A stretch of DNA of 64,000 nt from Prevotella sp. (GCA_022775985.1 JALFIM010000071.1:45006-109005), one strand, 5' to 3'. Counted from the first letter of the stretch, positions 2,790-19,688 are shown. Numbers and translations: made by a program. The notes: generated by a model not told the origin, from the letters alone.

Positions 2790-5700
2790 ATGATATATGG
2801 GGCTGTGCGCCTCTTGTTTATGCGACATCATGGCATTATTATGACAATAAGAGCACTCAAGACATTATCTATATTACTAATCGGTCTGCTTTTGACGGCA
2901 TCTTGTACTGACAGGGAGGTGCGTGCTAAAGTTGACAGGCTCAATGAGTTGTCTTACACCAGCCATTACCGCGACCTTGCCAAGACTAAATATTTTGCCA
3001 ATGAGGCCTTGAAGTGCTCTGACGGCTACGATGCCGGCACCGCAGAGGCTTATAATAACCTCGCGTTCGTAAGCATAGCCAAAATGCAGTATGCCGAGGC
3101 AAGGCGTTATCTTATGAGTGCCATAGATGTCACCGACAACCTCGTGGAGCAGTTAGTGGCTGAGGTTCAGCTTATGCGCTTGTGCCAACGGCAGTCAGAC
3201 AACAAGGACTTCTATACCCACATGCAGACTGCGGAGCAATTGATTAAGCGTATATGTGATGAGCAGTCTGAGCTTGACGCGCACCAGGCAGGACGGTTTG
3301 TGTATGCCGAGAGCGAGTTCAGCATAGTGGCCTCTACTTATTTCTATTATGTGGGACTTGACACTGATGCCGCAGACATGCTCAATCGTATAGACCCCAA
3401 TGGCCCTGTGGTCAAGGACACTGCCCAACTGCTCAACTATTACTACAACATAGGGTCGGGCGGCATATTGCATGACGGCACGAGCGATGACATCTGTCAG
3501 GCGGAGTTCAACTATCTGGTGAGGTGCTATCTGTTGTCCCGTCAGTACAATTATCCTTTCTGGGAAGCCAACTCCATGCAGGCTCTCAGTGAGCATCTCG
3601 TGGATAAGGACGCATGCACGACGCTTATGCACAACAATCCGCAGGAGATAGAGTTTCTCAATGTAGACAACATGCCCGACTCCCTGCTGGCAGGAAACCT
3701 CGCTTACCGCTCACTTGGCGTGTTCCGACAGTTCGGTGATGTCTACCAGATAGCCGGTGCCTACCGCACACTCGCCCAGAGCTATTGGGCCATACGCGAC
3801 TACAATTCCGCTCTCATCTGCCTTAACGACGCGCTTAGCGACAAGCGGGTGGAGCGTGCTCCTGACTTGGTGGCTTCCATACGGGAGAAGTTGTCAATGG
3901 TGTATTCGGCGGTAGACGACAAGAAACACAGCGACTACAACCGCAACATTTACCTTGACTTGCAGGAGAACACGCGTCAGGACCGCCAGCTTGAGGCCCG
4001 CGCAGACATGCTTGAGCGTTCGGCGGTGCAGCTCAACGCCATGATAGTGGCGGTGTGTCTGCTGATAGTGCTTGTCATAGGCATGCTCGTGTGCTTCGAC
4101 TACAAGCGCCGCCACGACCGTAAACTGGTGTCGCAGGCTTCGCTTGACGCGCCTCTCGCGCAGTGGCGTGACATGGTGAGCCGTGAGGACGAGGGGCTGC
4201 AAGCCGGCAATGAGGAGCTGCAGGAGCGCATACTCGTGGGAGAGAACGAACTCGAACGTTACAAGATAGTAAACCTTGAGCAGCGCACTAAAGTGTCATT
4301 GGCCAATAGCACTATGCCGCTTATAGACAGGATAATACGTGAGGTCGGCAAGCTGACGGGCAAGAACGAGGCATCGGAAGTGGTGGACTCGCGCTTCAGG
4401 TATCTTGCAGAGCTTGCAAACAAGATAAACGAGTATAACGACTCTCTTACGAAGTGGATAAAATTGCGTCAAGGGGAAGTAAGGCTGCATATTGAGAGTT
4501 TCCCGTTGCAGAGCGTCTTTGACGTGGTAAGGCAAAACCGCACGGAGTTTGCCGTCAAGGGCGTGGAACTTGTAGTTGAGCCTACGGAGCTTATGGTCAA
4601 GGCCGACAGGGTGCTCACGCTGTTCATGGTGAACACCATAGTGGAGAATGCACGGCGTTTCACGTCGGCAGGGGGCACCGTGAGGGTGGTGGGTCATGAG
4701 TGCGATGACTGTGTGGAGATTGTAATCTCAGACACAGGAACAGGCATGACACAAGAGCAGATGGCAGGATTGTTCAGCAAGAAGGTGATAGTAGATAAGG
4801 ATGGGGCAACCTCTGGGCAGTCTGCTGCGGACGGCAGGACATCACATGGATTTGGATTGCTCAACTGCAAGGGCATAATAGACAAGTACAAGAAGACAAG
4901 CTCGCTCTTCTCGGTATGCAGCATATCCGTTGACAGCGAGGTGGGTAAGGGCAGCAAGTTCATGATAAGACTGCCCAAGGGCATAAGAAAAACCATCATG
5001 CTCATCGCGCTCCTGTGCGGTATGTCGTCCGGTGCGTCTGCGGCCACTGACAGTTCTTGGGCATTGTCCAAGGCCGGGGCCTTTGCCGACAGTGCCTATT
5101 TCAGCAACGTGTCTGCCGAATACCGCAAGGCATTGGTGTTTGCCGACAGTTGCGTGCATTATCTCAACATGTATTATCTGAAGGCATATCCAGGCAGCAA
5201 GTGTCTGATGCGCAGCACAGGAGACGGCACAGGCGGCACCGCTGCTGAGATATTGTGGTACAGAAATCATTTCAAGTGCAACTACAATATCATCCTTGAC
5301 ATACGCAATGAGAGTGCCGTGGCCGCCCTTGCGCTGCATGAGTGGGACGTATATACATATAATAATAAGGTGTACACACAGCTATTCAGGGAGTGCAGTG
5401 CCGACGACACCCTGTCCGACTATGTGCTCATAATGCAGAAGTCTGAGAGCAACAAGAACATAGCCATATTCATGCTGTTGGCGTTGCTGCTCTCCATATT
5501 CCCTATATACTACATGCTCTATTACCGCCACAGGTTGTATTACAGGTACGCCTTTGATAAGGTAATGCATATAAATAACGTGTTGGTGAGCCATAAGCAG
5601 TCTGAGGCCAAGCTGTCGGAGATACGTAAGATATGGAACACTGACGCTATCAGCGGCAATACACAGGGCATCCAGCGTCTTAAACAGGTGATACATGACA

Positions 5701-6341
5701 TACAGCAGGGACTGGTGCAGGACATCAGGCAGAAGGCTGCTCTCCATGAGCGCAGCCTGTCGTTGACTGACGAACTGCGGCGTGTGGAGTTTGAGAAAGA
5801 CAGGTATTATGTCAGCAACAATGTCCTTGAGAACTGTTTGTCTGCCTTGAAGCACGAGACCATGTATTACCCGAGCCGTATAATGCAGCTTGTCGCCAGC
5901 GGTACTGACGGTGTGCCACAACTCAAGGACGTGGCTTGCTACTACCGCGAGCTATACTCAGTGCTGAGCGAACAGGCGTTGAGGGCTGTGGCTGTGAGTC
6001 AGCGCGTAGACTATTCGCTCGCTGGCTACATGCTCAGTCTGCTGAGTCAGGTGGCTGGAGTGCGCAGACTGGCGACCACCGAACAGGCGTACGGCCCCGT
6101 GTATGTCAAGCTCACGGCACGTATGGATAACATGCGGCTGACGCAGGAGCAGATAGTAGACCTGTTCACGCCATCTACGACAGACTTCAGATTCCTCGTC
6201 TGCCGGCAGATAGTGCGTGAGTTTGGTGAGCAGACCAACGCACGCGGTTGTGGCATACAGGCTTATGCGGCTGCCGACGGCGCTCTGATGATAGAAATAA
6301 CGATAACAAATACGATATGGAAAAATTTAAAGTTGTCATAG
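2790..6341 (+). CDS. Large membrane sensor histidine-kinase-like protein (DUF5112/DUF5113-type architecture)
   Basis: Signal/lipoprotein-like N-terminus, helical periplasmic region, TM at about aa 415-437, HATPase motifs VENARRFT, ISDTGTGM, HGFGLLNCK, then a second periplasmic region, TM and degenerate kinase-like tail. Exact start uncertain. Confidence 0.8.
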   Translation: MIYGAVRLLFMRHHGIIMTIRALKTLSILLIGLLLTASCTDREVRAKVDRLNELSYTSHYRDLAKTKYFANEALKCSDGYDAGTAEAYNNLAFVSIAKMQYAEARRYLMSAIDVTDNLVEQLVAEVQLMRLCQRQSDNKDFYTHMQTAEQLIKRICDEQSELDAHQAGRFVYAESEFSIVASTYFYYVGLDTDAADMLNRIDPNGPVVKDTAQLLNYYYNIGSGGILHDGTSDDICQAEFNYLVRCYLLSRQYNYPFWEANSMQALSEHLVDKDACTTLMHNNPQEIEFLNVDNMPDSLLAGNLAYRSLGVFRQFGDVYQIAGAYRTLAQSYWAIRDYNSALICLNDALSDKRVERAPDLVASIREKLSMVYSAVDDKKHSDYNRNIYLDLQENTRQDRQLEARADMLERSAVQLNAMIVAVCLLIVLVIGMLVCFDYKRRHDRKLVSQASLDAPLAQWRDMVSREDEGLQAGNEELQERILVGENELERYKIVNLEQRTKVSLANSTMPLIDRIIREVGKLTGKNEASEVVDSRFRYLAELANKINEYNDSLTKWIKLRQGEVRLHIESFPLQSVFDVVRQNRTEFAVKGVELVVEPTELMVKADRVLTLFMVNTIVENARRFTSAGGTVRVVGHECDDCVEIVISDTGTGMTQEQMAGLFSKKVIVDKDGATSGQSAADGRTSHGFGLLNCKGIIDKYKKTSSLFSVCSISVDSEVGKGSKFMIRLPKGIRKTIMLIALLCGMSSGASAATDSSWALSKAGAFADSAYFSNVSAEYRKALVFADSCVHYLNMYYLKAYPGSKCLMRSTGDGTGGTAAEILWYRNHFKCNYNIILDIRNESAVAALALHEWDVYTYNNKVYTQLFRECSADDTLSDYVLIMQKSESNKNIAIFMLLALLLSIFPIYYMLYYRHRLYYRYAFDKVMHINNVLVSHKQSEAKLSEIRKIWNTDAISGNTQGIQRLKQVIHDIQQGLVQDIRQKAALHERSLSLTDELRRVEFEKDRYYVSNNVLENCLSALKHETMYYPSRIMQLVASGTDGVPQLKDVACYYRELYSVLSEQALRAVAVSQRVDYSLAGYMLSLLSQVAGVRRLATTEQAYGPVYVKLTARMDNMRLTQEQIVDLFTPSTTDFRFLVCRQIVREFGEQTNARGCGIQAYAAADGALMIEITITNTIWKNLKLS

Positions 6342-7042
6342 TAGAGGACGTGCCATTGGAGCTGAAAGGCACTGAGGGCATATTGAAGAACGACATACCT
6401 GAGGCTGAGGTCATAGGTACGGCCTCTACGGAGACGGAGTTCTGGGCTATATTGAAGAGGCAATTGCCCGACTTGGTGCTCCTTGACCTTGGGCTTGGCG
6501 GGTCTACGACTGTGGGCGTGGAGATTTGTCGCCACGTGAAGGACTTGCATCCTAAACTGAAAGTCCTGATATTCACGGGTGAGATACTGAACGAGAAATT
6601 GTGGGTAGATGCTCTTGATGCAGGATGTGACGGCATAATACTCAAGACGGGTGAGATGCTTACGCGAAATGATGTCAACAGCGTCATGGACGGCAAACGC
6701 ATGGTGTTCAATCAGCCTATACTCAATAAGATAGTGGAACGCTTCAAGCAGAGCATAGGCAGTGAGATAGCCCATCAGGAGGCTGTGGTCAACTACGAGA
6801 TAGACGAGTATGACGAGCGTTTCTTACGTCATCTCGCCTTGGGCTATACCAAGGAGCAGATATCCAACCTGAAGGGAATGCCATTTGGCGTGAAGAGCCT
6901 TGAGAAGCGGCAGAATGAGATAGTGCAGAAACTGTTTCCTAACGGTAACGGCCGGCTTGGCGTGAACGCCACACGGCTGGTGGTAAGGGCTTTCGAGCTG
7001 CATATATTGGATATTGACAACTTAGCTGCTGACGCAGAATGA
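6317..7042 (+). CDS. Response regulator (receiver plus LuxR-like HTH)
   Basis: MEKFKVVIVEDVPLE, LVLLDLGL (phosphoacceptor Asp), ILKTG; start at 6317 overlaps the sensor gene end (track start 6248 likely too long). Confidence 0.88.
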   Translation: MEKFKVVIVEDVPLELKGTEGILKNDIPEAEVIGTASTETEFWAILKRQLPDLVLLDLGLGGSTTVGVEICRHVKDLHPKLKVLIFTGEILNEKLWVDALDAGCDGIILKTGEMLTRNDVNSVMDGKRMVFNQPILNKIVERFKQSIGSEIAHQEAVVNYEIDEYDERFLRHLALGYTKEQISNLKGMPFGVKSLEKRQNEIVQKLFPNGNGRLGVNATRLVVRAFELHILDIDNLAADAE

Positions 7043-7070
7043 CAGGGGTAGGCATTATGGATGTGGCGTT

Positions 7071-7700
7071 ATGAGGAAAAGACATGTTATGCTCGGAGTA
7101 TATGGCCGCCGTGTCATAGCCTATTGCGTATGCGTGGCGGCTGTGGCGCACCTGCTCGTTATGCTGCTGTCATGGATAGTAGCGTCTGTCTGTCCTGAGA
7201 TGCACATACGGTCGCTGCTCAGTGGCGACGGCATAAGGTGGATGTTCGGCAAGTTTATGGAGGGCATGGCCTCCGAGGTGCTTGTCGGGCTGATGCTCGT
7301 GTGCATAGCAGTGGGGGCTTTTGTCAGGAGTGGGCTTATGAGTGCGGTGCGTAGCCGTGGCCTACGCTATAAGGAGCGGTATGCGCTAAGGCTCGTCGTG
7401 GGCGAGCTGTTGGTGTATGTGGCGGTCATGTCGCTGCTTACGATAGTGCCGCATGCTCCGCTGCTCAGCGTCACGGGGGCGTTGTTCCCAAGCAGTTTCT
7501 CTCACAGCATAGTGGCCCAGTTGTCAATAATGACGTGGGTAGCATCGCTGACATACGGCATAGTAGCAGGCTTGGTGAGGAGTGTGGATGATGCCTTGAA
7601 GGTACTCACCTTTGGCGTGGAGGCGTTCGCGCCGCTGTTCATACTCTATTTTTTCGTGTGCGAGTTGGCACAGTCGGTGGCCTATGTCATGATGTGGTGA
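7071..7700 (+). CDS. Small polytopic membrane protein, AbgT-family N-terminus-like
   Basis: About five hydrophobic segments; SLLSGDGIRWMFG resembles the AbgT/YdaH N-terminal motif but the protein is only 209 aa. Confidence 0.55.
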   Translation: MRKRHVMLGVYGRRVIAYCVCVAAVAHLLVMLLSWIVASVCPEMHIRSLLSGDGIRWMFGKFMEGMASEVLVGLMLVCIAVGAFVRSGLMSAVRSRGLRYKERYALRLVVGELLVYVAVMSLLTIVPHAPLLSVTGALFPSSFSHSIVAQLSIMTWVASLTYGIVAGLVRSVDDALKVLTFGVEAFAPLFILYFFVCELAQSVAYVMMW

Positions 7701-7724
7701 GCACGGTAGGTACGTATGCGGCTC

Positions 7725-8996
7725 TTAGAGCCAAGGTGACAGCAGGTGTGCAAACCATCCCACAAACTTCTTCCACGGTGTGCGGAACTCATTCCACGAC
7801 TGTGGGGTGAGAAGGAATGAGTCTGCCTTGTCGTTCTCGAACATGGTCTCCAGCTCATGTGTCGTGGGCTTGTCTATGATGACGGCATTCTCCTCGTAGT
7901 CAAACCGCAGACTTCGCGCGTTGAGGTTGGCGCTGCCCACAGTGCAGAAACGTCCGTCCACCATTATTATTTTCGTGTGGTGGAATCCGGGCTTGTACAT
8001 CCATACCGTAGCTCCGTGCTTCATCAGCTTATGCACATTGTAGAACACGCAGTCGGGTGTTAATGGTATATCGCTGTGCGTAGATACCATCACCTCCACT
8101 TTCACGCCTCGCTTTATGGCGTCATATAATGATTTTTTCAGTTTATGTGACAGCGTAAGGTACGGGTTCACAATCTTTATGCTGTCCTTTGCGTCATTGA
8201 TGGCATCTATATAGAACTTCCTTATAATCTTGTTGGTAGTGCGCGGCTCACGGTTTATGATGCCCACCATCTTGCGTCCTGCGGTGGCAGTGGTGTCTTT
8301 TCTCAGACCGTCAAACCGCTCAGGGGTGAGGTAGCCACGGTAGTACTTGCTGCCGCTCAGTTGCTCACCGGTCACCTTCTTCCAAATCCTGAGGAATATG
8401 CTCTGCAGGGTGTTCACTTCCTGACCCTCAATGCGGCAGTGCATGTCGCGCCATGAGCCTACGGCCTCCGTACCCTTGATGTAGTAGTCTGCCACGTTCA
8501 TGCCGCCAGTATATGCTATCTTGCCGTCGATGATGACAATCTTGCGGTGGTCGCGGTGAAATACATGGTTCACCCACGGAAACCTCAGAGGGTCGAACTC
8601 ATGTATGTCTATACCCCTTGAGCGCAGCTCCGAGATATGCCGCTTCTTCAGCGGCTTGTTGTTGGAGTCGTTGCCGAACCCGTCAAACAGGGCTCTCACC
8701 TCCACACCGGCAGCGGCTTTCTCTGCCAGTATGTCGAAGAGCAGTGATGCTATGGAGTCGTTTCTGAAATTGAAGTATTCGAGGTGTATGCTGCTCTTGG
8801 CCTGTCTCACTGCCTTGAACATGTCGTCGAACTTCTCTTGTCCGCTCTTCAGCAGCACTACGGAGTTGTCGTGTGAGAATTTTATCCCCTCGTTACGTAA
8901 TTGCCTGACAATGACAGAGTCGCTCGTCTGTGCTGATATTGCAGTCGTTGACATGGTAAGACATACTGTGAGAGCCAGTATTGAAAACTTTTTCAT
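7725..8996 (-). CDS. cls: Cardiolipin synthase / phospholipase D family
   Basis: Two HKD-type motifs: DHRKIVIIDG and HHTKIIMVDG; probable start MKKFSIL at 8996. Confidence 0.88.
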   Translation of the reverse strand: MKKFSILALTVCLTMSTTAISAQTSDSVIVRQLRNEGIKFSHDNSVVLLKSGQEKFDDMFKAVRQAKSSIHLEYFNFRNDSIASLLFDILAEKAAAGVEVRALFDGFGNDSNNKPLKKRHISELRSRGIDIHEFDPLRFPWVNHVFHRDHRKIVIIDGKIAYTGGMNVADYYIKGTEAVGSWRDMHCRIEGQEVNTLQSIFLRIWKKVTGEQLSGSKYYRGYLTPERFDGLRKDTTATAGRKMVGIINREPRTTNKIIRKFYIDAINDAKDSIKIVNPYLTLSHKLKKSLYDAIKRGVKVEVMVSTHSDIPLTPDCVFYNVHKLMKHGATVWMYKPGFHHTKIIMVDGRFCTVGSANLNARSLRFDYEENAVIIDKPTTHELETMFENDKADSFLLTPQSWNEFRTPWKKFVGWFAHLLSPWL

Positions 8997-9068
8997 CAAA
9001 GTCGTCTGTTGATATGTGTCAGTATTGGATGCTTTGCGCGTTTCGCCTAGTATGCTCACGCTTGTAGG

Positions 9069-10043
9069 TCACAGCATGCAGCGGTAATGGTCTACGACCC
9101 CCAGCAGATGACCGGCCTCGTCGCTGACCAATACGGAGTGTATCTTGTATTTGTTCATTATATGTTGTATCTCGCTGATCTTAGTCGTGGGCAGGACGGT
9201 CTTGGGCGAAGTGGTCATTATGTCGCAGACGGTCTTGTTGAAGAACTGCGCCTGCCATTTCTCCATGGCACGCCTTATGTCGCCATCGGTGATGAGTCCT
9301 GCTATCTTGCCGTCGATGAGTGCCACTCCCAGTCCGAGCTTTCCCTTGCTCACATGTATGATAGCCTCGCCGAGATGCATCTCCTTCGGTATTATGGGCA
9401 GGTCGTCGGTGCGCATCACGTCGGCGGCTGTCGTCAGCAGACGCTTGCCGAGCTCACCGCCGGGGTGGAACTGTGCGAAGTCCTTGGGCTTGAAGTGGCG
9501 CACCGTCATCAGTGCCACGGCCAGCGCGTCACCCATCGACAGCACTGCCGTGGTGCTGCTTGTAGGGGCAAGGTTGAGGGGGCACGCCTCCTTCTCCACG
9601 GCCACGTTTATGTGTACGGTGGAGTATTTTGCCAGCAGCGAGCTCGGGTTTCCGCTCATGCCTATGATGGGTATCTTGCTGTGCAGCAGCATGGGTATGA
9701 AGCGGAGCAGCTCGTCGGTCTGACCTGAATTGCTTATAGCCAGTACTATGTCCTTATGCGACACGGCCCCTAAGTCGCCGTGGTATGCGTCGAGGGGGTT
9801 CATGAAGAACGATGGCGTGCCGGTGCTCGACAGTGTTGCCGCTATCTTCGCGCCTATGTGTCCGCTTTTTCCTACACCTGTCACGACGACCTTTCCCTCA
9901 CACTCAAGCATCATCTTTACTGCCTTGTTGAAGTTGTCATCGAGTTGGGGAATGAGGGCAAGTATGGCGTGGGCCTCCTCGGTGAGGCATTTCACGGCGT
10001 ACGGCCTTACATCCTCTATGTTGTCATGTGCTGAGTTGCTCAT
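9069..10043 (-). CDS. kdsD: Arabinose-5-phosphate isomerase KpsF/GutQ family (SIS + 2 CBS)
   Basis: VTGVGKSGHIG, EACPLNLAPTSSTT, FHPGG; adjacent to kdsA. Confidence 0.93.
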   Translation of the reverse strand: MSNSAHDNIEDVRPYAVKCLTEEAHAILALIPQLDDNFNKAVKMMLECEGKVVVTGVGKSGHIGAKIAATLSSTGTPSFFMNPLDAYHGDLGAVSHKDIVLAISNSGQTDELLRFIPMLLHSKIPIIGMSGNPSSLLAKYSTVHINVAVEKEACPLNLAPTSSTTAVLSMGDALAVALMTVRHFKPKDFAQFHPGGELGKRLLTTAADVMRTDDLPIIPKEMHLGEAIIHVSKGKLGLGVALIDGKIAGLITDGDIRRAMEKWQAQFFNKTVCDIMTTSPKTVLPTTKISEIQHIMNKYKIHSVLVSDEAGHLLGVVDHYRCML

Positions 10044-10050
10044 CTCATGA

Positions 10051-10806
10051 TTATTTTAGCAATTCTTTAACGATGTTTTCCAATTTGTCTACATTCAGCA
10101 TGTTGGGCCCATCGCTGAGTGCATTGTCTGGAGAGGGGTGTACCTCAAAGAAGTAGCCCGTGGCCCCAAAGGCTTTCGCGGCCATGGCCATGGCTGGCAC
10201 GAACTTCCTGTCTCCGCTTGTCGTGCCGTTGCCGGCACCGGGGCGCTGCACGCTGTGTGTGCAGTCCATGATGACGGTGGGTACGATATGCTTCATGTCG
10301 TCTATGTTGCGGAAGTCTACTACGAGGTTGTTGTAGCCGTATATGTTGCCGCGCTCAGTGAGCCAGATGTCCTTGGCGCCAGCATCACGCGCCTTCTCTA
10401 CGGGGTATCTCATGTCCGTGCCGCTGAGAAACTGTGCCTTCTTGATGTTCACTATGCGCCCTGTCTTGGCGGCGGCTGTCAGCAGGTCGGTCTGCCGGCA
10501 CAGGAATGCCGGTATCTGTATCACGTCAGCTACTTCGCCCGCGGCCTCGGCTTGCCAACTCTCGTGTATGTCAGTGAGAATCCTCAGACCGTATGACGAC
10601 TTGACGTCACTGAGCATCTGGAGCCCTTTCTCGAGTCCTGGGCCTCTGAACGACTTTATTGATGTCCTGTTGGCTTTGTCAAATGATGCCTTGAATATGA
10701 TGTCGATGCCGAGCCTGGTGTTTATGTCCTTTATCACCTTGGCTACCTCCGACAGCAATTCCGCTGATTCAATGACGCATGGGCCTGCTATGAAAACTGG
10801 ATGCAT
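10051..10806 (-). CDS. kdsA: 3-deoxy-8-phosphooctulonate (KDO8P) synthase
   Basis: IAGPCVIES, KASFDKANRTS, QIPAFLCRQTDLL, NIKKAQF, DCTHSVQ. Confidence 0.96.
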   Translation of the reverse strand: MHPVFIAGPCVIESAELLSEVAKVIKDINTRLGIDIIFKASFDKANRTSIKSFRGPGLEKGLQMLSDVKSSYGLRILTDIHESWQAEAAGEVADVIQIPAFLCRQTDLLTAAAKTGRIVNIKKAQFLSGTDMRYPVEKARDAGAKDIWLTERGNIYGYNNLVVDFRNIDDMKHIVPTVIMDCTHSVQRPGAGNGTTSGDRKFVPAMAMAAKAFGATGYFFEVHPSPDNALSDGPNMLNVDKLENIVKELLK

Positions 10807-10972
10807 GTAATAAAATATATTTTGTTATTGCAAAATTACTGAAAAACTGTTGTCGTGCCAAATCTTTGACATACATTTTAAGAACCAGCCGAAGGAAATG
10901 GTCGTGCGTGTGTTCGGCTCCTGTAATGGCACGTTATCGGTACGCTTCTGTAACGTTTTGATTCACAACGTA

Positions 10973-11061
10973 TTGCAAAACGGCCCATTTCGCATCGTAA
11001 AACGGCCCGAATCACAGCGTGAAATGGACCGAATCGCAATACGAAATGGGCCGTTTTGCAA
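10973..11061. repeat. Palindromic 22-bp-unit repeat element, copy A
   Basis: Four imperfect 22-bp units bounded by a perfect 20-bp inverted repeat TTGCAAAACGGCCCATTTCG / CGAAATGGGCCGTTTTGCAA. Confidence 0.9.
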
Positions 11062-11174
11062 ATCGATTTGTATCAGTGCGTATAATTACAGGAATATGAT
11101 ATGTAAAGCACGAATAGTAAAGCACGAAAATAAATATTTCCAATGATTTATTCTTTTGTCTAAATAAGATTCTT

Positions 11175-11182
11175 TATCTTTG
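11175..11182 (+). promoter_or_regulatory. Bacteroidetes -7 promoter box (TAnnTTTG) for the island operon
   Basis: TATCTTTG upstream of upxY-like gene; nearest TTTG (11155-11158) is 16 nt away, shorter than the usual 19-21. Confidence 0.55.
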
Positions 11183-11290
11183 TAGTCAATAATTGGCAAT
11201 TTCATCAAGAAAAGTCTATTGGTTTAATCTAATCTCTGAGCAATTACATTGTGAGATAATGCCAAACAACCTCCAACGGCTGACGCTTCA

Positions 11291-11971
11291 TTGTATAATG
11301 GGCAGCCTACCGACACAGACTTATCGTGTCCAAGTGCGAGACTTACCTCTTGTACGCCCTCCATCTCAAAGAACAGAGGTGGGGTGTCGGTAGAGAATGT
11401 GCCTACTGCAAACAGGCAATGGTTTGTTTTAAAAGTTTCGTATGGGCGTATCGTCAAGGCTAAAGCATTCGCAGAAGCTAAAGGACTTGAATGTTATGTT
11501 CCTATGCGATACAAAGAGATTAGGAAACAAGGCAAGAAACGAATCATCACAGAGCCTCTTCTTCCCTCATTTCTATTTGTTCATGCTGCAGCAGAACAAG
11601 TTGAAACATTACTCAATGAAATCAAAGTAAGTTCAGATGAGAGCAGAAACCTACTAAGTTATTACTTTAATCATACAGTCCATCTCCAAGACAACCCTGA
11701 ACGCAATCCTCCACTCATCATACGTGATGAAGCGATGGACAACTTCATCAGACTTACATCCATAAAGAATCCGCATATAATCCCTGTTACGACAGAAATT
11801 ATTCAGTATAAATTAGGAGATATGGTCATTGTGACAGATGGTGAATTTAAGAATATTCGTGGCAGAGTGGCAAGAATAGCAGGACAGCAGAGAGTGGTCG
11901 TGGAATTGTTTGAAGGATGCTTGGTGGCAACAGCCTATATACCAAAGAATGCCATGAAATTGCATGTTTGA
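11291..11971 (+). CDS. upxY: UpxY-family (NusG paralog) transcription antiterminator
   Basis: NGN domain WFVLKVSYGR...ECYVPM...EPLLPSFLFVH and KOW motif GDMVIVTDGEFKNIRGRVARIAGQQRVVVEL. Start codon uncertain (TTG 11291 or GTG 11399). Confidence 0.88.
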   Translation: MYNGQPTDTDLSCPSARLTSCTPSISKNRGGVSVENVPTANRQWFVLKVSYGRIVKAKAFAEAKGLECYVPMRYKEIRKQGKKRIITEPLLPSFLFVHAAAEQVETLLNEIKVSSDESRNLLSYYFNHTVHLQDNPERNPPLIIRDEAMDNFIRLTSIKNPHIIPVTTEIIQYKLGDMVIVTDGEFKNIRGRVARIAGQQRVVVELFEGCLVATAYIPKNAMKLHV

Positions 11972-11992
11972 CATTTAATCATCACAATATCA

Positions 11993-13612
11993 ATGACTGG
12001 AAAAACGAAAAACATACTGAGCTTCAATCATAAGGAGGCTATGGATTTCTTCTTGAAATCAGAGCAATATCACGGATTTGAATTACCTGAATATTTCGTA
12101 TTCGATGACTTGCTTCAAAGAGTCAAGAATGCAGTTGACGATACGCCCTATGAGAAATGCTTAAATGAAGAAACTTCACCCGAACAATTATCAGATGTAA
12201 ACCTCAACATTCTGCTAAACAAGGATGGACGTTATGCTGTTCGCCCCATTATTCTTGCTAATCCGTTCCTTTATTATTTTCTTGTTAGGGAAATTTGCAA
12301 TGAGCAATCATGGACGGTTATAAAGCAACTATTTGAGAAGTTCAGCGTTCCACATATTACATCTTGCGCTCTGCCTGTCATACCTAAAGAGAAAGAGCCA
12401 TTTCATAAATCCACCACTATCCTCAATTGGTGGAGTTCCATGGAACAACGAAGCATCGAGTTGTCCTTGGAATATCGTTATATGTTCGTTACGGACATCA
12501 CCAACTGTTATGGTTCAGTAAATCCACAAGTTTTTGATTGGGCTTTCTCATTCAGAGGTACAAAGTACGAAACGGAACAAGTAAGCCCCATTGCCAAGAA
12601 TATCCAAAAGTATCTTCGTGCCTTCCAACAAGGGCGCAACATTGGCATTCCCCAGGGGAGTGCCATATTCGACTTTATAGGCGAAATTATTCTTGGCTAT
12701 TCTGACTTATTACTTCACGAAGCTATAAAGAGAGAGGGTATCAAAGCTCCTTACGAAATCATCCGTTACCGTGATGACTACCGCATATTCTGTAACGACA
12801 AAGATGAACTTGAAAAGATTTCATATATTCTTCAACACGTGCTGGAGAGTTTGAACTTCCGCATGAATAGCAAGAAGACCAAGATTAGTGACAGCATAGT
12901 TACCGATGCTGTCAAGCCCGACAAACTTGCCTATATCTACAACACACCTATATTTAACAAGAAAGGTTGCGACTTTGACAGTTTCGAGAAACACCTGCTT
13001 TACATTTTGCTGTTTGCTCGGCAATATCCCGACAGTGGTTCTATAAAAACTATGCTCTCGGACATAGACAAAAGAATCGAAGATTGGCTCAAGCCTTATG
13101 AAGAAGAGGTTACCACCATACCTATTCTTGAAGGAGGTGAACCAAAGGCTGAAAAAATAATGAAGCAACGCAGACTTATAGGAGGCAGCATCCGAGCCAT
13201 GTCAGCGGTCTGTGCACAAATAGCCTTAGAGAATGTTGGCTGTTGCCATTACGCCCTGCGAGTTCTTAGTCGAATGGTGGACTCCTTAAAAGGCAAAAAG
13301 GAAAAAAGCGCTATCATCAGTCTCGTTTATTCAAAGCTCTGCAACCAACCAAACTCCGACTACAACCAGCTCTGGCTACAGAACATGACGTATCAACGAG
13401 ACAAAAAAGGCACATCACCGTATAAAGTGCGGCTGTGCCGTGTGGTAGCAGGGGACAAGGATGTGGAATTGTGGAATAATGAGTGGGTGAAGCCTCAATT
13501 CTTGTCAGGCTTGCATATGAATGGAATTATCGATGAAAAGACCTTGAAGAAGGTTACACCAGTGATTACGTTTAGGGAAACGAGAATGTATAATGAGTTT
13601 ACAGTTTGCTGA
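11993..13612 (+). CDS. Reverse transcriptase, UG/Abi defence class with helical C-terminus (DRT4/UG15- or AbiP2-like)
   Basis: TDITNCYGS (D168), GIPQGSAIFDFIGEIILGY, RYRDDYRIF (YRDD at 12767-12778), NSKKT; about 230-aa helical C-terminal region; no maturase/HNH domain. Confidence 0.9.
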   Translation: MTGKTKNILSFNHKEAMDFFLKSEQYHGFELPEYFVFDDLLQRVKNAVDDTPYEKCLNEETSPEQLSDVNLNILLNKDGRYAVRPIILANPFLYYFLVREICNEQSWTVIKQLFEKFSVPHITSCALPVIPKEKEPFHKSTTILNWWSSMEQRSIELSLEYRYMFVTDITNCYGSVNPQVFDWAFSFRGTKYETEQVSPIAKNIQKYLRAFQQGRNIGIPQGSAIFDFIGEIILGYSDLLLHEAIKREGIKAPYEIIRYRDDYRIFCNDKDELEKISYILQHVLESLNFRMNSKKTKISDSIVTDAVKPDKLAYIYNTPIFNKKGCDFDSFEKHLLYILLFARQYPDSGSIKTMLSDIDKRIEDWLKPYEEEVTTIPILEGGEPKAEKIMKQRRLIGGSIRAMSAVCAQIALENVGCCHYALRVLSRMVDSLKGKKEKSAIISLVYSKLCNQPNSDYNQLWLQNMTYQRDKKGTSPYKVRLCRVVAGDKDVELWNNEWVKPQFLSGLHMNGIIDEKTLKKVTPVITFRETRMYNEFTVC

Positions 13613-15692
13613 TTATAATATGGACTATAAGAATAATTCAGAAATAATGAACAATATGGAACTTACAACTCAACAAAATAAAGTCTTTGAACAAATTAAG
13701 GCATTTCTTAATAGTGATGCATCTGTTTTTATCCTTCGAGGCTATGCAGGTACTGGTAAAACCACTATGGTAAAAGTTGTGGCTGACTATATAACTAAAA
13801 GCCGCCAGTTGACTATGATGGCTCCTACAGGACGAGCAGCGAGAGTACTTTCTGCTAAAACAGGATATGAAGCAACAACGATACACAAAGCTATTTATGA
13901 AAAAGCACATATTGTACCTAAAAAAGTCAAAGATATTGCAGAGTCAGAGTTCAAGTTCATGTTTCCTATTCATCAATCTGAAAATGGAGGTAATATAGTT
14001 GCAATAGTGGATGAGGCTTCTATGGTTTGCTCTCGAAAGATTGAACATGAGTTGTTTGTATTCGGAACCGATAATCTAATGGATGATCTTCTTACATATG
14101 TACGTCCGAATTTTGGTGGCAAGGTTATCTTTGTTGGTGATCCTGCGCAGTTGCCACCTGTAGGAGAAGCTGTTTCAAATGCATTACGGGCAGATTTTTT
14201 CCAAAAGAAAGGTTTGAAAGTTATAGAAACAGAACTTACCGAAGTGCTCCGTCAAAAAGGTGACAGTATTATCCTTAAGAATGCTATGATGATACGCGAT
14301 CTTCTCAACAAAGATAAGCGTAATCAACTTGTATTTGAAGAGCAAAAGGATGACGTAGAAACTGTTCCTTCTGAACAATTCCTTGACAAATACCTTAATT
14401 ACAGGAGGAAATCAGGGAAAAATGACAGTGTTGTCATCTGTTATTCTAACAAATCTGCAAACAGATACAACAGGGATATTCGTAAGGCTCTCTATGGTGA
14501 AGATGTGCCGATTAGAGAAAATGACATTCTGCTTATTACACAAAATAACTACATGCTAAATCGTATGAATGGAGAGTTTGTTCCTGTACTTTCTGTAGGA
14601 GCAAGAACACAACAGTCTGCTCCTGTATATATTCAGAGAGGAGGAATAAAACAGCGTGTTATCATTACATTGAACTTTGTGCAAGTAACAGTAACAGATG
14701 GTGATGGAAATCCAATGTTGTGCATGTTGATAGAAGATTTACTGACAAGTGATAAGGCTACAATTTCTATTGATGAGAATAGGGCTCTATATATCAATTT
14801 CTGCATGAGGCATCCAAAATTGAAACAGGGCACAGAGGATTTTGCAGAAGCCCTTCTATCTGATGAGTATTATAATGCAATACGTGCCAAATATGGCTAT
14901 GCTGTAACAGGGCATAAATGCCAAGGTGGTGAATGGGGAAAAGTATTTGTTGACTATACTAGTAGAACAGGACTAGATAACGACAGCTTAAGATGGGCAT
15001 ACACAGCTACAACACGAGCACAAAAAACACTTTATGTAGCAAACCTTCCACACATCACACCGTTTTCGAAATTCAGAATTGACCCTGTACAAAAGTGCAA
15101 AAACATAGATCTGGAATGCAGAATCCTTGACGAAGTTCCACTAACACCATTCCACGATAAAAATGTAGACAATGGCGTAAGGGCTAAGTTCCATTGTATT
15201 ACAAAAAACATGGAGTATACTCCTTACAAAATCTTAAGTGTACAAAGTCGTCCTTATTTGGAAATTTACAATGTACAAACACCTGATGGGGTTGATAGGT
15301 ATGACCTTCATTACAAGGCTGGGAGTATATTTTTGCCGGCAAAAGCTACATCTCCAAATCAGCATACACCGCTCATTAATATGATGCTGAATGACGAACG
15401 ATGTATATCTTACAAATTTAATTATGTTCCTTCTGACGAATCCCACAGCAAACTGTTTGATCTGATAAGATCTGCTTGTGATTCTATAAGCGTTCAAATT
15501 ACAAATGTTGTTGAACATCCAGAAGATTTTAGTACTTTATTTTACATGCGTACTAGTGAAACCTTCTCCTATATAAAGGTGTATGTAAATTCTGACGGAT
15601 TTATCACATATGCCAAACCTATGTCTCTGAAGGGTAAAGAAGATGGAGAACTTAGTGCAATAATAGAAATTATAAATTCACATTTCATATAA
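13593..15692 (+). CDS. RecD-like SF1B helicase with C-terminal duplicated beta-rich (putative TBP-like) domain
   Basis: Walker A GYAGTGKT, APTGRAA, IVDEASMV, VGDPAQLPPV, YAVTGHKCQGGEW, WAYTATTRA; about 160-aa tail with two similar repeats. True start may be 13620-13656. Confidence 0.9.
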   Translation: MSLQFADYNMDYKNNSEIMNNMELTTQQNKVFEQIKAFLNSDASVFILRGYAGTGKTTMVKVVADYITKSRQLTMMAPTGRAARVLSAKTGYEATTIHKAIYEKAHIVPKKVKDIAESEFKFMFPIHQSENGGNIVAIVDEASMVCSRKIEHELFVFGTDNLMDDLLTYVRPNFGGKVIFVGDPAQLPPVGEAVSNALRADFFQKKGLKVIETELTEVLRQKGDSIILKNAMMIRDLLNKDKRNQLVFEEQKDDVETVPSEQFLDKYLNYRRKSGKNDSVVICYSNKSANRYNRDIRKALYGEDVPIRENDILLITQNNYMLNRMNGEFVPVLSVGARTQQSAPVYIQRGGIKQRVIITLNFVQVTVTDGDGNPMLCMLIEDLLTSDKATISIDENRALYINFCMRHPKLKQGTEDFAEALLSDEYYNAIRAKYGYAVTGHKCQGGEWGKVFVDYTSRTGLDNDSLRWAYTATTRAQKTLYVANLPHITPFSKFRIDPVQKCKNIDLECRILDEVPLTPFHDKNVDNGVRAKFHCITKNMEYTPYKILSVQSRPYLEIYNVQTPDGVDRYDLHYKAGSIFLPAKATSPNQHTPLINMMLNDERCISYKFNYVPSDESHSKLFDLIRSACDSISVQITNVVEHPEDFSTLFYMRTSETFSYIKVYVNSDGFITYAKPMSLKGKEDGELSAIIEIINSHFI

Positions 15693-15693
15693 T

Positions 15694-17178
15694 ATGGCAA
15701 ATGTTAGAGATATAACGACAAAGTGCAAGGAAGGTCAAGTGCAGGAGGCATACGATATTGCTAAAGCTGATTTCGTGGCTATGCCAACCGATGTTTGGAA
15801 ACAAAGAGAGCTTGGTTGGGCACTATATTACATGATAAAAGCTGATTCCGAAAAAGGGGATTACACAAAGTTATTGGGACATATTGACGAACTGAAATCA
15901 TTGAGTCAACTGACATTAACTAATGACAATATGATTTTTGACAATGTCCAATTTCAAATAGCAAATTATATTAGGGTTCATATACCCTTTACTGATATAG
16001 AAGCATCAACAAAACTTTCAACATTTTTTCTGAAGCTAAAGGATTATAACTTCAAATCATCTGTTGGACATTCCTACCTTCTCCAATCCTTTCTCAAATT
16101 TGGGAATTGGCCTGAAATGCCTGACTTCTTTGACTGGTGGAATTTGGACAATCTAACTTCTGGAGACTATACACCATACGTCAATCAGAAAGGGCAAAAA
16201 ATGATGACCCTTGCGGAGCGTGCTTTCATAGCAAATTCCAAGGCATTGCTTAAGCTAAATGATCTTGGACGAATTGAGGAATTCCTTCCCAAGTTGGATA
16301 TTCTTATGAATAACCATAAGGAAATGATGTATCCAGGTTATTTCTACGGAAAACTTCTCCTGGCTTTAGGAAGTAATAGTGATGAAGCTTTAAAAGTTAT
16401 TATACCTTTTGTGAGAAAAAAAACTACTGAGTTTTGGGCCTGGCAGCTTTTAAGTGATGTTTTCACGGATGATGAGGAAAAGCAACTAGCTTGTCTGCTA
16501 CGTGCTGTTCATTGCAGAACAAAAGAAACTTTTCTTGGCAAAGTTCATATCAAATTAGCCAATTTGTATATAAAGCGTAGACAATTTAACTCTGCACGCT
16601 ATCATATCGATGCTGTAATACGATGTTATGTTTCACAAGGCTGGAGACTACCAACCGAAATAGATTGCTGGATACATCAACCTTGGCTTAATTCTACTAT
16701 ACCAGACGGAAATGCCCCTATTGATTATATGTCCATTACGAATGACATATTATGCAATGGCGCAGAAGAATGTATTGCAGTCGTTACATACGTTGATCAA
16801 ACCAATCATAAGGCTTTTATTATTTATGGCAAAGAGAAACGTACTGTTCAGAAGTTACGATTTAGAGTACAGGCGGGAAGTACATTGAAATTACATTATA
16901 TTACAGATAGTGAAGGCAGAATGAAAATTATTAGTTCAACAAGACTTCAGCTGCCTTCGAATCTAAATTATGCAAAATATGTAGAGGGAAAGATTGACAA
17001 AAGAGATGATAAAGAATTTGCATTCTTGAAGTCGGATTCTATAAGTTGCTTTGTTTCACCTAATATTGTGAAAAAATACGACTTAAAGAATGGGGATAAT
17101 ATCAGAAGTCTGATTATCTATGATTATGACAAGAAGAAGGATATGTGGAATTGGGTTTGTGTAAATGCAAAGAAGTAA
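15694..17178 (+). CDS. Helical-repeat (TPR-like) protein with C-terminal S1/CSD-like OB folds
   Basis: Helical repeats (QEAYDIAK..., WAWQLLSDVF, LKLANLYIKRRQFNSARY); C-terminal beta-rich modules IAVVTYVDQ and VEGKIDKRDDKEFAFLKSDSISCFVSPNIV. Confidence 0.65.
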   Translation: MANVRDITTKCKEGQVQEAYDIAKADFVAMPTDVWKQRELGWALYYMIKADSEKGDYTKLLGHIDELKSLSQLTLTNDNMIFDNVQFQIANYIRVHIPFTDIEASTKLSTFFLKLKDYNFKSSVGHSYLLQSFLKFGNWPEMPDFFDWWNLDNLTSGDYTPYVNQKGQKMMTLAERAFIANSKALLKLNDLGRIEEFLPKLDILMNNHKEMMYPGYFYGKLLLALGSNSDEALKVIIPFVRKKTTEFWAWQLLSDVFTDDEEKQLACLLRAVHCRTKETFLGKVHIKLANLYIKRRQFNSARYHIDAVIRCYVSQGWRLPTEIDCWIHQPWLNSTIPDGNAPIDYMSITNDILCNGAEECIAVVTYVDQTNHKAFIIYGKEKRTVQKLRFRVQAGSTLKLHYITDSEGRMKIISSTRLQLPSNLNYAKYVEGKIDKRDDKEFAFLKSDSISCFVSPNIVKKYDLKNGDNIRSLIIYDYDKKKDMWNWVCVNAKK

Positions 17179-17184
17179 AAAAAT

Positions 17185-17586
17185 ATGAAAGAGTTAACAC
17201 ATAATGCTAAGATAGCAGTATTAAAAATATTGAATGACATCGTTAATGCAGATAACATTGTAAAAGATGTAGAGGTAGATTATATGAATGAAATTGCACG
17301 TTATTTCGAACTTGCAGATAATTATATGGACGAGGTAAACAATATCGTTACTTCGCAAGCTTTGTCAATAGTAAGAACTCTCCCAACTGATTTAAAAGAG
17401 AAAATTACCAAGATGATGGGAAAGATGATTGTTATTGATAAAGATATTAATTATAACGAGGTAAAACTATATAATGCAGTCTGTGAGTCATGTAATATTG
17501 AACAAAATTTCAATATTGAAGATTATTCGTGGTGTACTTTTAGTGGAACATTAGTTAATCCTGAAGACTTTGCGAATATTATTTGA
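17185..17586 (+). CDS. TerB-like (tellurite-resistance B fold) protein
   Basis: IAVLKILNDIVNADNIVKDVEVDYM and KMIVIDKDINYNEVKLYNAV fit the duplicated AD(G)xxxxxE pattern of TerB. Confidence 0.7.
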   Translation: MKELTHNAKIAVLKILNDIVNADNIVKDVEVDYMNEIARYFELADNYMDEVNNIVTSQALSIVRTLPTDLKEKITKMMGKMIVIDKDINYNEVKLYNAVCESCNIEQNFNIEDYSWCTFSGTLVNPEDFANII

Positions 17587-17617
17587 TTAGTTACTTAACA
17601 CTTGAAACCAAGCATAT

Positions 17618-18449
17618 ATGAACATAGCAGACCAAATACGTCTAAAACTCCAACTGAAGGAGAATTCAGAAGTGGAATATAAGTCACTGCTGGCGGCTTT
17701 CCGAAAGTTGAATTTTGGCGTTCTTTCTCAGCCTTGGCCAATACCAACGGCGGCACGATTGTATTAGGAGTGAAAGAGAAGAACCATAAATTCACGCCAG
17801 ATGGTCTCTCTGAAGAACTTGTCGCAAAATACAGAAAGCAGTTTTGGGATGATGCACACAATAAGTCGTGTGTGAACATCCCGTTATTGGTTGAGAGGTG
17901 ATATCGAAGAAATAAAGACTGACGGAGGGCAATATCTACTTGCCTTTAGAATACCTCGTGCCCAATACGATTTGCGCCCAATACACCTTACACTAACTCC
18001 ATTTGGACATACCTATAAGCGTAGGGACGAGGGCGATTATCTGTGCAGTGACGATGAGGTGAAGCAGATGTATTCGGATGCCAATAATATGAGGGCATCC
18101 AACTATTGAGGAAAAGAATAATCCTGACAGAATTGAAACTTACCTGTCTTTGGTAAATCATACCAATATAGCTACGGAAACTTCTACTGTAACTACAGAA
18201 ACTTCAGCAAAAACTACGGAAACCACTACGGAAACTTTATCAGATACTGCGGAAACTCCAACAAAAACTACCGAAACTATTATTGATTCTATCCGAAATA
18301 ATCCGAAAATAACAACCAAAGAGATAGCTGCTGTATGTAGAATTACTGAAGATTGTGTTTCTTACCATATCAAGAAACTGAAACAAATGGGTAAAATAGT
18401 CCGTGTTGGTGGCTCTCGTAATAGAGGAGAATGGAAAGTCGTTGAATAG
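17618..18449 (+). pseudogene. Decayed AlbA_2/Schlafen-domain plus winged-HTH gene
   Basis: MNIADQ...ENSEVEYKS (frameshift) GGFPKVEFWRSFSALANTNGGTIVLGVKE... (frameshift near 17897) GDIEEIK...YKRRDEGDY, stop at 18109, then DRIETYLSL, a T/E-rich linker and HTH NPKITTKEIAAVC...GGSRNRGEWKVVE. The usual middle ATPase-like part is missing. Confidence 0.8.
18171..18279 (+). repeat. Short tandem repeat ACTACGGAAACT (TTET) in linker
   Basis: About six imperfect copies, mostly 21-nt period. Confidence 0.7.
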
Positions 18450-18484
18450 GTTTATATCAAAATTTAGCAACAACAACAAAGAAT

Positions 18485-18562
18485 ATGTTATTAGAAAACA
18501 AGACAAGGCCTCTTAGAGATGAACAATGAATATTGCAGCGCCAAGTGGCTGCATACTTAGGA
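18485..18562 (+). pseudogene. Truncated XRE-family HTH gene remnant
   Basis: Reads MLLENKTRPLRDEQ*ILQRQVAAYLG; premature TGA at 18527, and similarity to the recalled Bacteroidales XRE pattern (MLLGNKI..LRDEQG.LQRQ.AAYLEID) stops after YL. Confidence 0.6.
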
Positions 18563-18578
18563 TACTGTGACTTTGAAC

Positions 18579-18740
18579 TTACTGTAACGTTACCACTTTA
18601 TACTCATGCCCTGTGGCTGGTACAAACTTTTCCAAGAGGTCTCGGATGCTAAGTTTCAGCGTGGAGGTGTTGATGCAAGGGTGGCAACCGAAATATTCTG
18701 TATTCAGCAGGTATTCATTCCTTTCCGTTAAAATATAATG
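18579..18740 (-). pseudogene. 3' remnant of prolyl-tRNA editing (YbaK/PrdX-like) gene
   Basis: Reads LTERNEYLLNTEYFGCHPCINTSTLKLSIRDLLEKFVPATGHEYKVVTLQ*; HPxxNTxT motif; no start codon (in-frame TGA just upstream). Confidence 0.65.
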
Positions 18741-18782
18741 TCATGGCGCGTCACTCTGCAGAGCGTGATGATGGTGCTGAGG

Positions 18783-19688
18783 TTATTCGGCAGCGTCTGT
18801 CGGGTGGGGCAGTGCGCCTGTATTTTTGAGTATGAGGCAAGCCCAGTCGTTAGATGACTTGCTGGCGGTAGCGGTCAGTCCGCACTTTGCCGCTTCCTGC
18901 TTGAGAACGGGTATATCGGAAGTGTAGAAACCGCTTAGTATGAGTGTGGCATCGACTTTCATCTTCTTGCAGAAGTTGTGCATGTCTGCGATGAGTATAT
19001 TGCGGTTGATGTTGGCGAGCACTATGTCGAATTCGCGGTTTACATCGTCCAGCACGTCTGATGTTCCGTGCAGTACGGTCAGGTTGCCGATGCCGTTGAT
19101 TTCAGCGTTGTGCATGGCGTTGCTTACGCTCCAGTCGTCTATGTCGTATGCTGTCACGTCACGTGCTCCGAATAAAGATGCGGCAATACAGAGAATGCCA
19201 GTGCCGCATCCGCAGTCAAGCACCGATTTGCCGTTGAGTGGCATGCTGCGGAGGGTAGACAGTATCATCTGCGTGGTGTCGTGTGTGCCCGTTCCAAAAG
19301 CCTGTCGGGCATCTATCAGAATGGGGTACTTGCAGTTTTTGTGCGCGTCAATAGCCTGTGGGTCTTTTGCATCGTAGACGATGCATTCGCCGTCTATTGC
19401 TATGGGCTGGAAACCCTGCTTCTCCCATTCGTGGTTCCAGTCCTCATCGGGGGCTTCCTCGGCTTTGTAGCGTATGCTGACATTCTCTATAGGGAAGAGG
19501 CGTATGGCCTCGGCGAGCGCGGCCTCGTCGTATGCGTCTGACTGTATGTAACCCTTCAGTCCGCCATCGGTGTCGATGAATGCCTCGAAACCGCATTCTC
19601 CAGCCATGTCTGCCAGCAGTTCTGATGATATGTCAAATATGTCTTTTTGACAGTCTATGGTAAATGATACTTCTAAGTATTTCATCAC
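18783..19688 (-). CDS. prmA: Ribosomal protein L11 methyltransferase
   Basis: EDWNHEWEK, AFGTGTHDTT, LDCGCGTGIL, LANINRNIL. Confidence 0.95.
   Translation of the reverse strand: MMKYLEVSFTIDCQKDIFDISSELLADMAGECGFEAFIDTDGGLKGYIQSDAYDEAALAEAIRLFPIENVSIRYKAEEAPDEDWNHEWEKQGFQPIAIDGECIVYDAKDPQAIDAHKNCKYPILIDARQAFGTGTHDTTQMILSTLRSMPLNGKSVLDCGCGTGILCIAASLFGARDVTAYDIDDWSVSNAMHNAEINGIGNLTVLHGTSDVLDDVNREFDIVLANINRNILIADMHNFCKKMKVDATLILSGFYTSDIPVLKQEAAKCGLTATASKSSNDWACLILKNTGALPHPTDAAE

Follow-up and report, generated by a model that had tools for sequence, protein, structure and literature searches.

Do closely spaced genes of phage-defence type form one system, or do they only share a site? This question is raised by a foreign block of 7.4 kb that lies between kdsA and prmA in a 64,000-nucleotide (nt) stretch of Prevotella sp. 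DNA (GCA_022775985.1, JALFIM010000071.1:45006-109005; the whole stretch is referred to here as the window). The block encodes, in order, a UpxY-family NusG paralogue, an AbiP2-type reverse transcriptase (RT), an SF1B helicase with a TBP-like domain, a TPR protein with terminal OB domains and a small TerB-like protein. The initial annotation proposed these five genes as a candidate new anti-phage system, in which the RT would be the effector and the helicase/TPR-OB pair would sense nucleic acid. We favour, with some reservation, the reading of the block as a mosaic island of defence genes in the kdsA–prmA slot, made of two autonomous modules and not a single system; both modules are already catalogued, as AbiP2 and as PDC-M16/TOTE.

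Layout of the block

The list of open reading frames (ORFs) gives five intact + strand genes within 11291–17586, in agreement with the initial annotation (mechanical ORFs 11291–11971, 11993–13612, 13593–15692, 15694–17178 and 17185–17586), separated in gene order by 21, ~43, 1 and 6 nt. The mechanical RT and helicase calls overlap by 20 nt (13593 versus 13612); relatives of the helicase all begin MELT(T/N)QQNK, so its start is placed at ATG 13656 and a gap of 43 nt results, within the range of 'overlap or at most ~45 nt' proposed earlier. The intact ORFs sum to ~6 kb of AT-rich DNA, with a GC content of 0.30–0.45 within the block versus 0.50–0.57 in the kdsA and prmA flanks. Profile matches place kdsD/kdsA (DAHP_synth_1) on one side and prmA on the other, which bears out the description of the block as an AT-rich insertion between housekeeping genes. 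One Bacteroidetes-type promoter precedes the genes on the + strand (11155–11182), with a -33 TTTG at 11155–11158 and, as had been noted, a -7 box TATCTTTG at 11175–11182 that fits the pattern TAnnTTTG. The expectation that no terminator interrupts the genes also stood: three terminator-like sites occur in 10800–18800, fewer than in shuffled sequence, and all three are on the - strand, with none on the + strand. The whole block is probably served by this single promoter. Profile matches further agree with the identities first given to the genes (UpxY, UG/Abi RT, helicase-TBP, TPR-OB, TerB-like and an AlbA_2 remnant) and with their defence-related content, the genes matching AbiP2 and PDC-M16/TOTE.

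Distribution of the RT and of the helicase, TPR and TerB-like genes

The neighbourhoods of the two sets of genes were surveyed separately. A scan of one genome per species gave 37 loci with relatives of the RT (44–89% identity), mostly from Prevotella and other Bacteroidales, and a metagenome scan for the helicase/TPR pair gave 51 loci; both sets were drawn by sequence similarity and their loci are not independent.

None of the 37 RT loci has a helicase-TBP or TPR-OB gene within 10 kb, and no neighbour is conserved across them. UpxY lies 20–35 nt 5' of the RT in nine. At the DNA level, homology of the RT loci to the window begins at 11132 and extends to ~13598; it takes in the promoter, the leader, UpxY and the RT, and breaks off where the RT ends. 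The cargo 3' of the RT varies, being in eight loci a giant protein of Tiamat-like (TmtA) type, which has S1 and sacsin domains, together with an SF1-PIN helicase, and elsewhere a Mokosh-like helicase with a DarT-domain giant, a DUF1848 gene with a DpdF-like helicase, or ordinary genes.

The helicase, TPR and TerB-like genes, by comparison, stay together in 49 of the 51 loci, the other two ending at a contig edge, and this trio is retained even at 57/47/40% identity (L088). UpxY is found 24 nt 5' of the helicase, with no RT, in 20 of these loci; in ~17 the trio stands behind unrelated genes, housekeeping genes included. A TmtA-like gene with a 250-amino-acid (aa) gene, or a radical-SAM cluster, is inserted before or after the trio in varied orders. 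A single locus of the 51, L076, has the order of the window, with the same sequence at the RT–helicase junction, and one other, L049, has the reverse order, the trio being followed by a separate UpxY-RT unit. RT orthologues of 82–89% identity and trio orthologues of 79–87% identity lack each other in almost all loci, and each module is also found alone behind the same UpxY or leader. Because RT homologues almost never neighbour the helicase/TPR pair (0/37 RT loci; 1/51 pair loci), the pattern is that of independent cassettes, which the initial annotation had itself given as a refutation, and it does not support one new five-gene system with an RT effector and a helicase/TPR-OB sensor.

Exchange of cargo at the kdsA–prmA slot

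Contigs of other samples that encode an identical KdsA, and are therefore treated as conspecific, fall into two types. In L120 and L122 the match to the window extends into UpxY and the RT. L114–L119 share 97% identity with the window as far as 11393, where the closing stem of the leader has its final base, and then continue, in the same direction and without UpxY, into a gene for an 1132-aa Eco57I/MmeI-like type IIG restriction-modification protein (in L114 at 5947–9345, directly behind the leader); they rejoin the window at the AlbA_2 remnants (17618–17718 and 17988–18099) and then at prmA from 18779. The joints of the exchange are the 3' end of the leader, exactly, and the 5' end of the tail gene, to within a few bases. 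Since conspecific contigs carry different cargo there, the kdsA–prmA slot is a strain-variable defence hotspot; and since head and tail are common to many islands, the cargo appears exchangeable by recombination. A comparison with empty sites in eight relatives of the genus was uninformative, as kdsA and prmA are not adjacent in them, and an exact look-up of the prmA product gave no match, the start of this ORF probably being wrong.

The tail that bounds the exchange lies at 17618–18449 on the + strand. It had been described as two decayed genes; a tblastn search with an intact 508-aa homologue from L039 showed both to be ends of one broken AlbA_2-HATPase_c_4-wHTH gene, with residues 1–161, including a frameshift, at 17618–18100 and residues 400–508 at 18099–18446. 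The middle of the gene is thus deleted and its C-terminal wHTH part retained; the domains are assigned from the Pfam domains of the intact homologue. An intact AlbA_2-HATPase-wHTH gene follows the TerB-like gene in 36/49 loci, usually with a small XRE-type HTH gene after it, and inserted cassettes are sometimes accompanied by a second copy of the first 75 codons of the AlbA_2 gene.

The slot resembles known defence hotspots (e.g. P2/P4, PMC9226505) in its conserved flanks, in defence cargo that differs from strain to strain and in having AbiP2 among that cargo. It is unlike P2/P4 in that the island has on one side a promoter and leader, accompanied or not by UpxY, and on the other an AlbA_2-wHTH gene; that the site belongs to the chromosome or to a mobilisable element and not to a prophage; and that the cargo stands in one predicted transcription unit.

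The AbiP2-type reverse transcriptase

The RT gene (11993–13612, + strand, 539 aa) encodes an AbiP2-type, class 1 UG/Abi enzyme. It matches the PADLOC AbiP2 profile PDLC03744 at E 1.1e-164 over RT residues 4–535 and profile positions 3–485 of 489, so that the match takes in both the RT domain and the C-terminal helical domain, and is 27.6% identical to the P2-EC30 RT over 98% of its length (tblastn). Its motifs are intact, with TDITNCY (D168) as motif A, IPQGS, and YRDD at 259–262, the last confirming the catalytic D261/D262 named at the outset. A retron assignment was rejected: the best NCBIfam retron-type match, St85, reached only 30 bits, AbiP2 scored best and there was no Rfam hit. AbiK and Abi-P2 perform protein-primed, untemplated DNA synthesis. 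A census of AbiP2 at the level of the order, in which 6/301 genomes reached threshold and ~4 were strong, was too sparse and so unusable for statistics.

AbiP2 has been described as a stand-alone defence protein (PMC9226505). The window RT shares with the AbiP2 of P2-like coliphages the full-length profile match, the intact RT motifs, a position in a hypervariable defence slot and the lack of a conserved partner gene. It differs in belonging to a very divergent Bacteroidales clade whose members are often preceded by UpxY, in sharing its orientation, and probably its transcript, with a TOTE cassette, and in a defence role that is putative here.

The helicase, TPR and TerB-like trio

The second module begins with an SF1B (Pif1/RecD-like) helicase (13656–15692, + strand), identified by PADLOC, Pfam and its homologues as component A of TOTE/PDC-M16. 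It matches PDC-M16A (PDLC04476) at 5e-202 and the Pfam families AAA_30, PIF1 and UvrD_C_2, has a Walker A GTGKT motif, and carries a C-terminal TBP-like domain (TBP-TOTE, PF22721, 53 bits versus a cut-off of 27). Only 1 nt separates it from component B, a TPR protein with terminal S1/cold-shock-like OB domains (15694–17178, + strand), which matches PDC-M16B (PDLC04486) at 7.8e-143 and, above both Pfam cut-offs, DUF7017 at 2e-36 and S1CSD-TOTE-2 at 1e-12 (PF22860, PF22707).

The third gene (17185–17586, + strand, 133 aa) is assigned to a small TerB-like helical protein from its position behind the TPR gene, a weak Pfam score and its predicted fold. PF05099 gives 22.0 bits, below the cut-off of 24.4 and over residues 3–47 only. 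The AlphaFold model (pLDDT 84.6) has as its best PDB match 2H5N (PG1108; TM 0.70, E 2e-4), which we take to be TerB-like in SCOP. Two acidic (A/I)D...E motifs are present, ADN..E and IDKD..NE, and a relative is named 'tellurite resistance protein B-like' by JGI. The exact protein is present on 35 contigs.

PDC-M16 is a catalogued candidate system, of which the literature searched makes no mention; nor did that literature yield an experimental test of PDC-M16/TOTE. TOTE stands, in PMC12458937, which cites Aravind, Iyer and Burroughs (2022), for TPR, OB, TBP and Effector, and RNase H domains are said there to be common in TOTE. The likeness of the window trio to TOTE/PDC-M16 lies in an SF1B helicase with a TBP-TOTE domain beside a TPR protein with DUF7017 and S1CSD-TOTE. 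No RNase H domain or recognisable nuclease effector was found in the window trio, and the sole fixed third gene is the TerB-like one, for which no enzymatic activity is known. This fixed third gene sets the window subfamily apart from the PADLOC definition of PDC-M16. The TerB profile matched none of the distant TOTE loci examined, so the gene appears specific to this TOTE subfamily, which is further unlike those distant relatives in having no retron-type RT, HisKin-conflict or iREC genes.

The UpxY gene and the structured leader

UpxY is the first gene of the block and follows a conserved leader. The mechanical ORF starts at TTG 11291 (226 aa); a probable start at GTG 11399 was placed from the codon-position pattern, giving a gene at 11399–11971 (+ strand), and is tentative because L025 does not have the GTG. 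The product matches NCBIfam NF033644 at 112 bits (cut-off 100) and Pfam NusG (NGN) at 38 bits, above the cut-off, with KOW at 17.9 bits, below it. To our knowledge, the only role established for NusG paralogues of the UpxY type is antitermination of capsule operons. No UpxZ or capsule cargo is present in the block: the next gene, at 21 nt, is the RT, and there are no glycosyltransferases.

PMC11685472 places the action of UpxY at a pause site within the leader of the operon that encodes it. With the UpxY/UpxZ capsule operons described there, the block has in common a UpxY gene in first place, a long conserved leader before it and, led by these, a long probable operon acquired by horizontal transfer; it differs from them in having no UpxZ, capsule genes or invertible promoter, in having phage-defence genes as cargo and in a leader that is also used without UpxY in cis. 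Nothing linking UpxY or NusG paralogues to phage-defence operons was found in the literature searched.

DNA homology to related islands begins at ~11132, and the -7 core TTTG is invariant in 15 aligned heads from other genomes. Head alignments and a covariance model define, behind the promoter, a conserved 5' leader of ~215 nt (11183–11398, + strand). Common to the 15 heads are, all on the + strand, a palindrome GTCAATAATTGGC directly after the -7 box (11185–11197), a motif AAGTCTATTGGTTTAATCTAA (11212–11232) and an invariant 19-mer GCTTCATTGTATAATGGGC (11285–11303); these are followed by a predicted three-way structure (11307–11393, + strand) closed by a 10-bp stem, CUACCGACAC/GUGUCGGUAG. The covariance model matches the element at 44 places in 64 sources. 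In the alignment 97.1% of cells pair, versus 36–49% in slid controls, and there are seven double-change pairs versus 2.4 ± 0.9 in shuffles; as the alignment was fitted to the model, this support for the structure is only moderate. An Rfam scan gave no match for the leader.

By codon position, variability in the leader is flat (0.074/0.062/0.101, versus 0.145/0.074/0.316 in the UpxY coding sequence), and the stretch is less variable than that coding sequence. Without an excess at third positions the leader is probably untranslated, and the same pattern speaks against the upstream portion of the 226-aa ORF as coding sequence.

The leader occurs in 8/401 genomes of the family. The window's own genome has two copies, which coincide with its sole two UpxY-family matches. 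The second copy, 89% identical, lies beside a UpxY gene (G000 contig C156, 6730–7206; locus L090, 3031–3570) and adjoins a gene for a Mob_Pre-like relaxase. The contig, of 7.3 kb, ends there, so the cargo behind this copy is unassembled. In other genomes the leader often has a Mob_Pre-like relaxase gene upstream of it. Cargo found behind the leader elsewhere comprises TmtA-like giants, an 1114-aa WG-repeat protein with a PLD nuclease, a radical-SAM cluster, and DUF2971 (PDC-S31) with a WG-repeat DEDDh exonuclease, often with no UpxY.

The TmtA-like (Tiamat) giants, of 1271–2051 aa, are the commonest alternative cargo (L013 11615–17770, L047 4699–8514 and L095 3473–7474). Four S1 domains and a sacsin-type ATPase are present in some of them. 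Behind the giants comes either an SF1 helicase-PIN gene or a gene of 250 aa.

Two loci, L061 and L065 (about 5870–5962), have a short head: the promoter and the first ~75 nt of the leader, including the AAGTCTATTGG motif, stand directly before the helicase gene, and both the structured element and UpxY are missing. The window helicase has its final 30 upstream bases in common with this short head. L103, from another species of the genus, has beside its kdsA (3440–4188) a weak match to the leader model (27.6 bits); just 3' of the match is a divergent gene of UpxY type (40% identity), and behind that gene come a GNAT acetyltransferase gene and a Bro-N gene. The position next to kdsA may be one where insertion recurs.

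One system or a mosaic

If the block is a mosaic of two modules under one head, its working may be pictured as follows. The promoter and the ~215-nt structured leader would drive one long transcript; UpxY, by what is known of its family (PMC11685472), would load onto RNA polymerase in the leader, and the modified polymerase would resist termination and read through ~6 kb of AT-rich foreign genes. The first module would be a stand-alone AbiP2-type RT that, by analogy with AbiK/Abi-P2, makes protein-primed, untemplated DNA and aborts infection. In the second, to judge from the domains, the TPR-S1/CSD protein would bind single-stranded nucleic acid of the invader, the SF1B helicase with its TBP-like domain would act on invader DNA or hybrids, and the TerB-like protein would be a subfamily-specific third subunit, either regulator or effector. 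The decayed AlbA_2-HATPase-wHTH gene would mark the end of the island.

Several observations weigh against this picture. The B. fragilis ops consensus YGCGNAGCR was not found in the leader by pattern search, so that the ops hairpin of the capsule operons has no counterpart detected there; and the leader precedes cargo without UpxY in cis in L091, L092 and L114, so that its function may be other than UpxY recruitment. Co-transcription and UpxY dependence are what we infer for the block, and the putative defence role of its components in this lineage is read from sequence. The other observations bear on the autonomy of the modules. The order of RT and TOTE genes is kept in the window and in L076, lineages 14–21% apart in protein sequence. 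In distant Bacteroidota, the TOTE pair stands behind a retron-type RT in 6/7 loci (L108–L110 and L124–L126; the seventh, L127, is truncated upstream), these RTs matching PADLOC retron RT profiles at 1e-93 to 1e-103, and between RT and pair lies either an uncharacterised gene of 195–282 aa or HisKin-conflict and iREC genes. Finally, in three loci an AbiP2-like RT of 44–47% identity to that of the window is preceded, at 2–14 nt, by a Pif1-like SF1 helicase bearing a C-terminal TPR segment (L030 2199–5938, L031 23–3804 and L032 2047–5043); these pairs may represent a two-gene AbiP2 variant.

A RT-HisKin fusion is present in the TOTE locus of Tenuifilum thalassicum.

The observations on the autonomy of the modules favour the best surviving alternative, in which the five genes are an integrated 'RT-TOTE': the DNA product of the RT would be bound or monitored by the helicase-TBP and TPR-S1/CSD proteins, with TerB as a further subunit and the AbiP2 RT in the role of the retron-type RT. 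The retron-type RT ahead of the distant pairs, with or without HisKin-conflict and iREC, and the close linkage in L030–L032 are in keeping with this, as are the 43-nt RT–helicase gap with no leader inside it and the junction kept in L076. It is nevertheless opposed by the close orthologues of RT and trio that almost always occur without each other, and by L049, where the modules stand in the opposite order and the RT is behind its own UpxY. RT-TOTE adjacency (2/51; 0/37) is also rarer than that of RT with TmtA-like genes (8/37) or of TOTE with TmtA-like genes (~6/51). Moreover, a retron-type RT profile run on the 51 loci with Prevotella-type trios had no match up to 8 kb from any trio, which argues that this type of trio works without an RT in cis. 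We thus regard an integrated system as unlikely, if deserving of attention; since combinations of RT, helicase and OB proteins recur, some cooperation between the RT and TOTE modules is conceivable, if not likely. It is a speculative thought, and in our view an improbable one, that an AbiP2-type RT replaced the retron-type RT of ancestral TOTE operons in the lineages of the window and L076, giving a hybrid with a third RT class in which protein-primed DNA is read by TBP and OB domains, on a cassette-swapping platform controlled by a NusG paralogue.

A different division of the block would make UpxY and the RT a two-gene regulatory or sensing head, the RT activating any downstream cargo, whether TOTE as here or Tiamat-like as elsewhere. 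The conserved DNA block 11132–13598, present in 9/37 RT loci with different cargo after it, and the TmtA-like gene that follows the RT in eight loci suggest such a unit; yet the TOTE trio and TmtA-like genes stand behind UpxY or a bare leader without the RT in many loci, ~28/37 RT loci have no UpxY, and AbiP2 has been described as a defence gene that acts on its own (PMC9226505). We give this proposal very little credence. That the block is the decaying remnant of a mobile element, its ORFs intact and its genes no longer expressed or useful, is hardly credible: the tail gene is decayed, the leader lies beside a Mob_Pre-like relaxase gene in other genomes and this site has no integrase or relaxase, but five long ORFs are intact over ~6 kb of AT-rich DNA, the catalytic motifs are preserved, the same island type occurs in other samples of the species (L120 and L122) and the exact TerB-like protein recurs across its 35 contigs.

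Implications of the mosaic reading

Three features of the mosaic island appear undescribed in the literature searched: a UpxY-family antiterminator with a conserved structured leader at the head of phage-defence cargo; a cassette platform with a fixed head and tail; and, the original TOTE description lying outside the literature covered, the fixed TerB-like third gene of the subfamily. A UpxY gene and conserved leader ahead of many anti-phage cassettes would extend the role of UpxY to immunity, and the leader would serve as a simple handle in the search for further defence genes, both in Prevotella and in gut bacteria related to it. The natural exchange of cassettes within one species, between a leader and an AlbA_2 tail that stay in place, shows how defence genes are swapped; and a TOTE subfamily with a TerB-like third subunit raises the question whether TOTE cores cooperate with reverse transcriptases.

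A repeat element beside the island

Between kdsA and the island promoter, at 10971–11063, lies a palindromic repeat element with units such as GCAAAACGGCCCATTTCG ... CGAAATGGGCCGTTTTGC. Rfam matches of this repeat to mir-2574 and mir-304 were far below the gathering scores and were rejected as spurious. Conspecific strains with the restriction enzyme have the repeat too, so it is part of the flank and not of the cargo.

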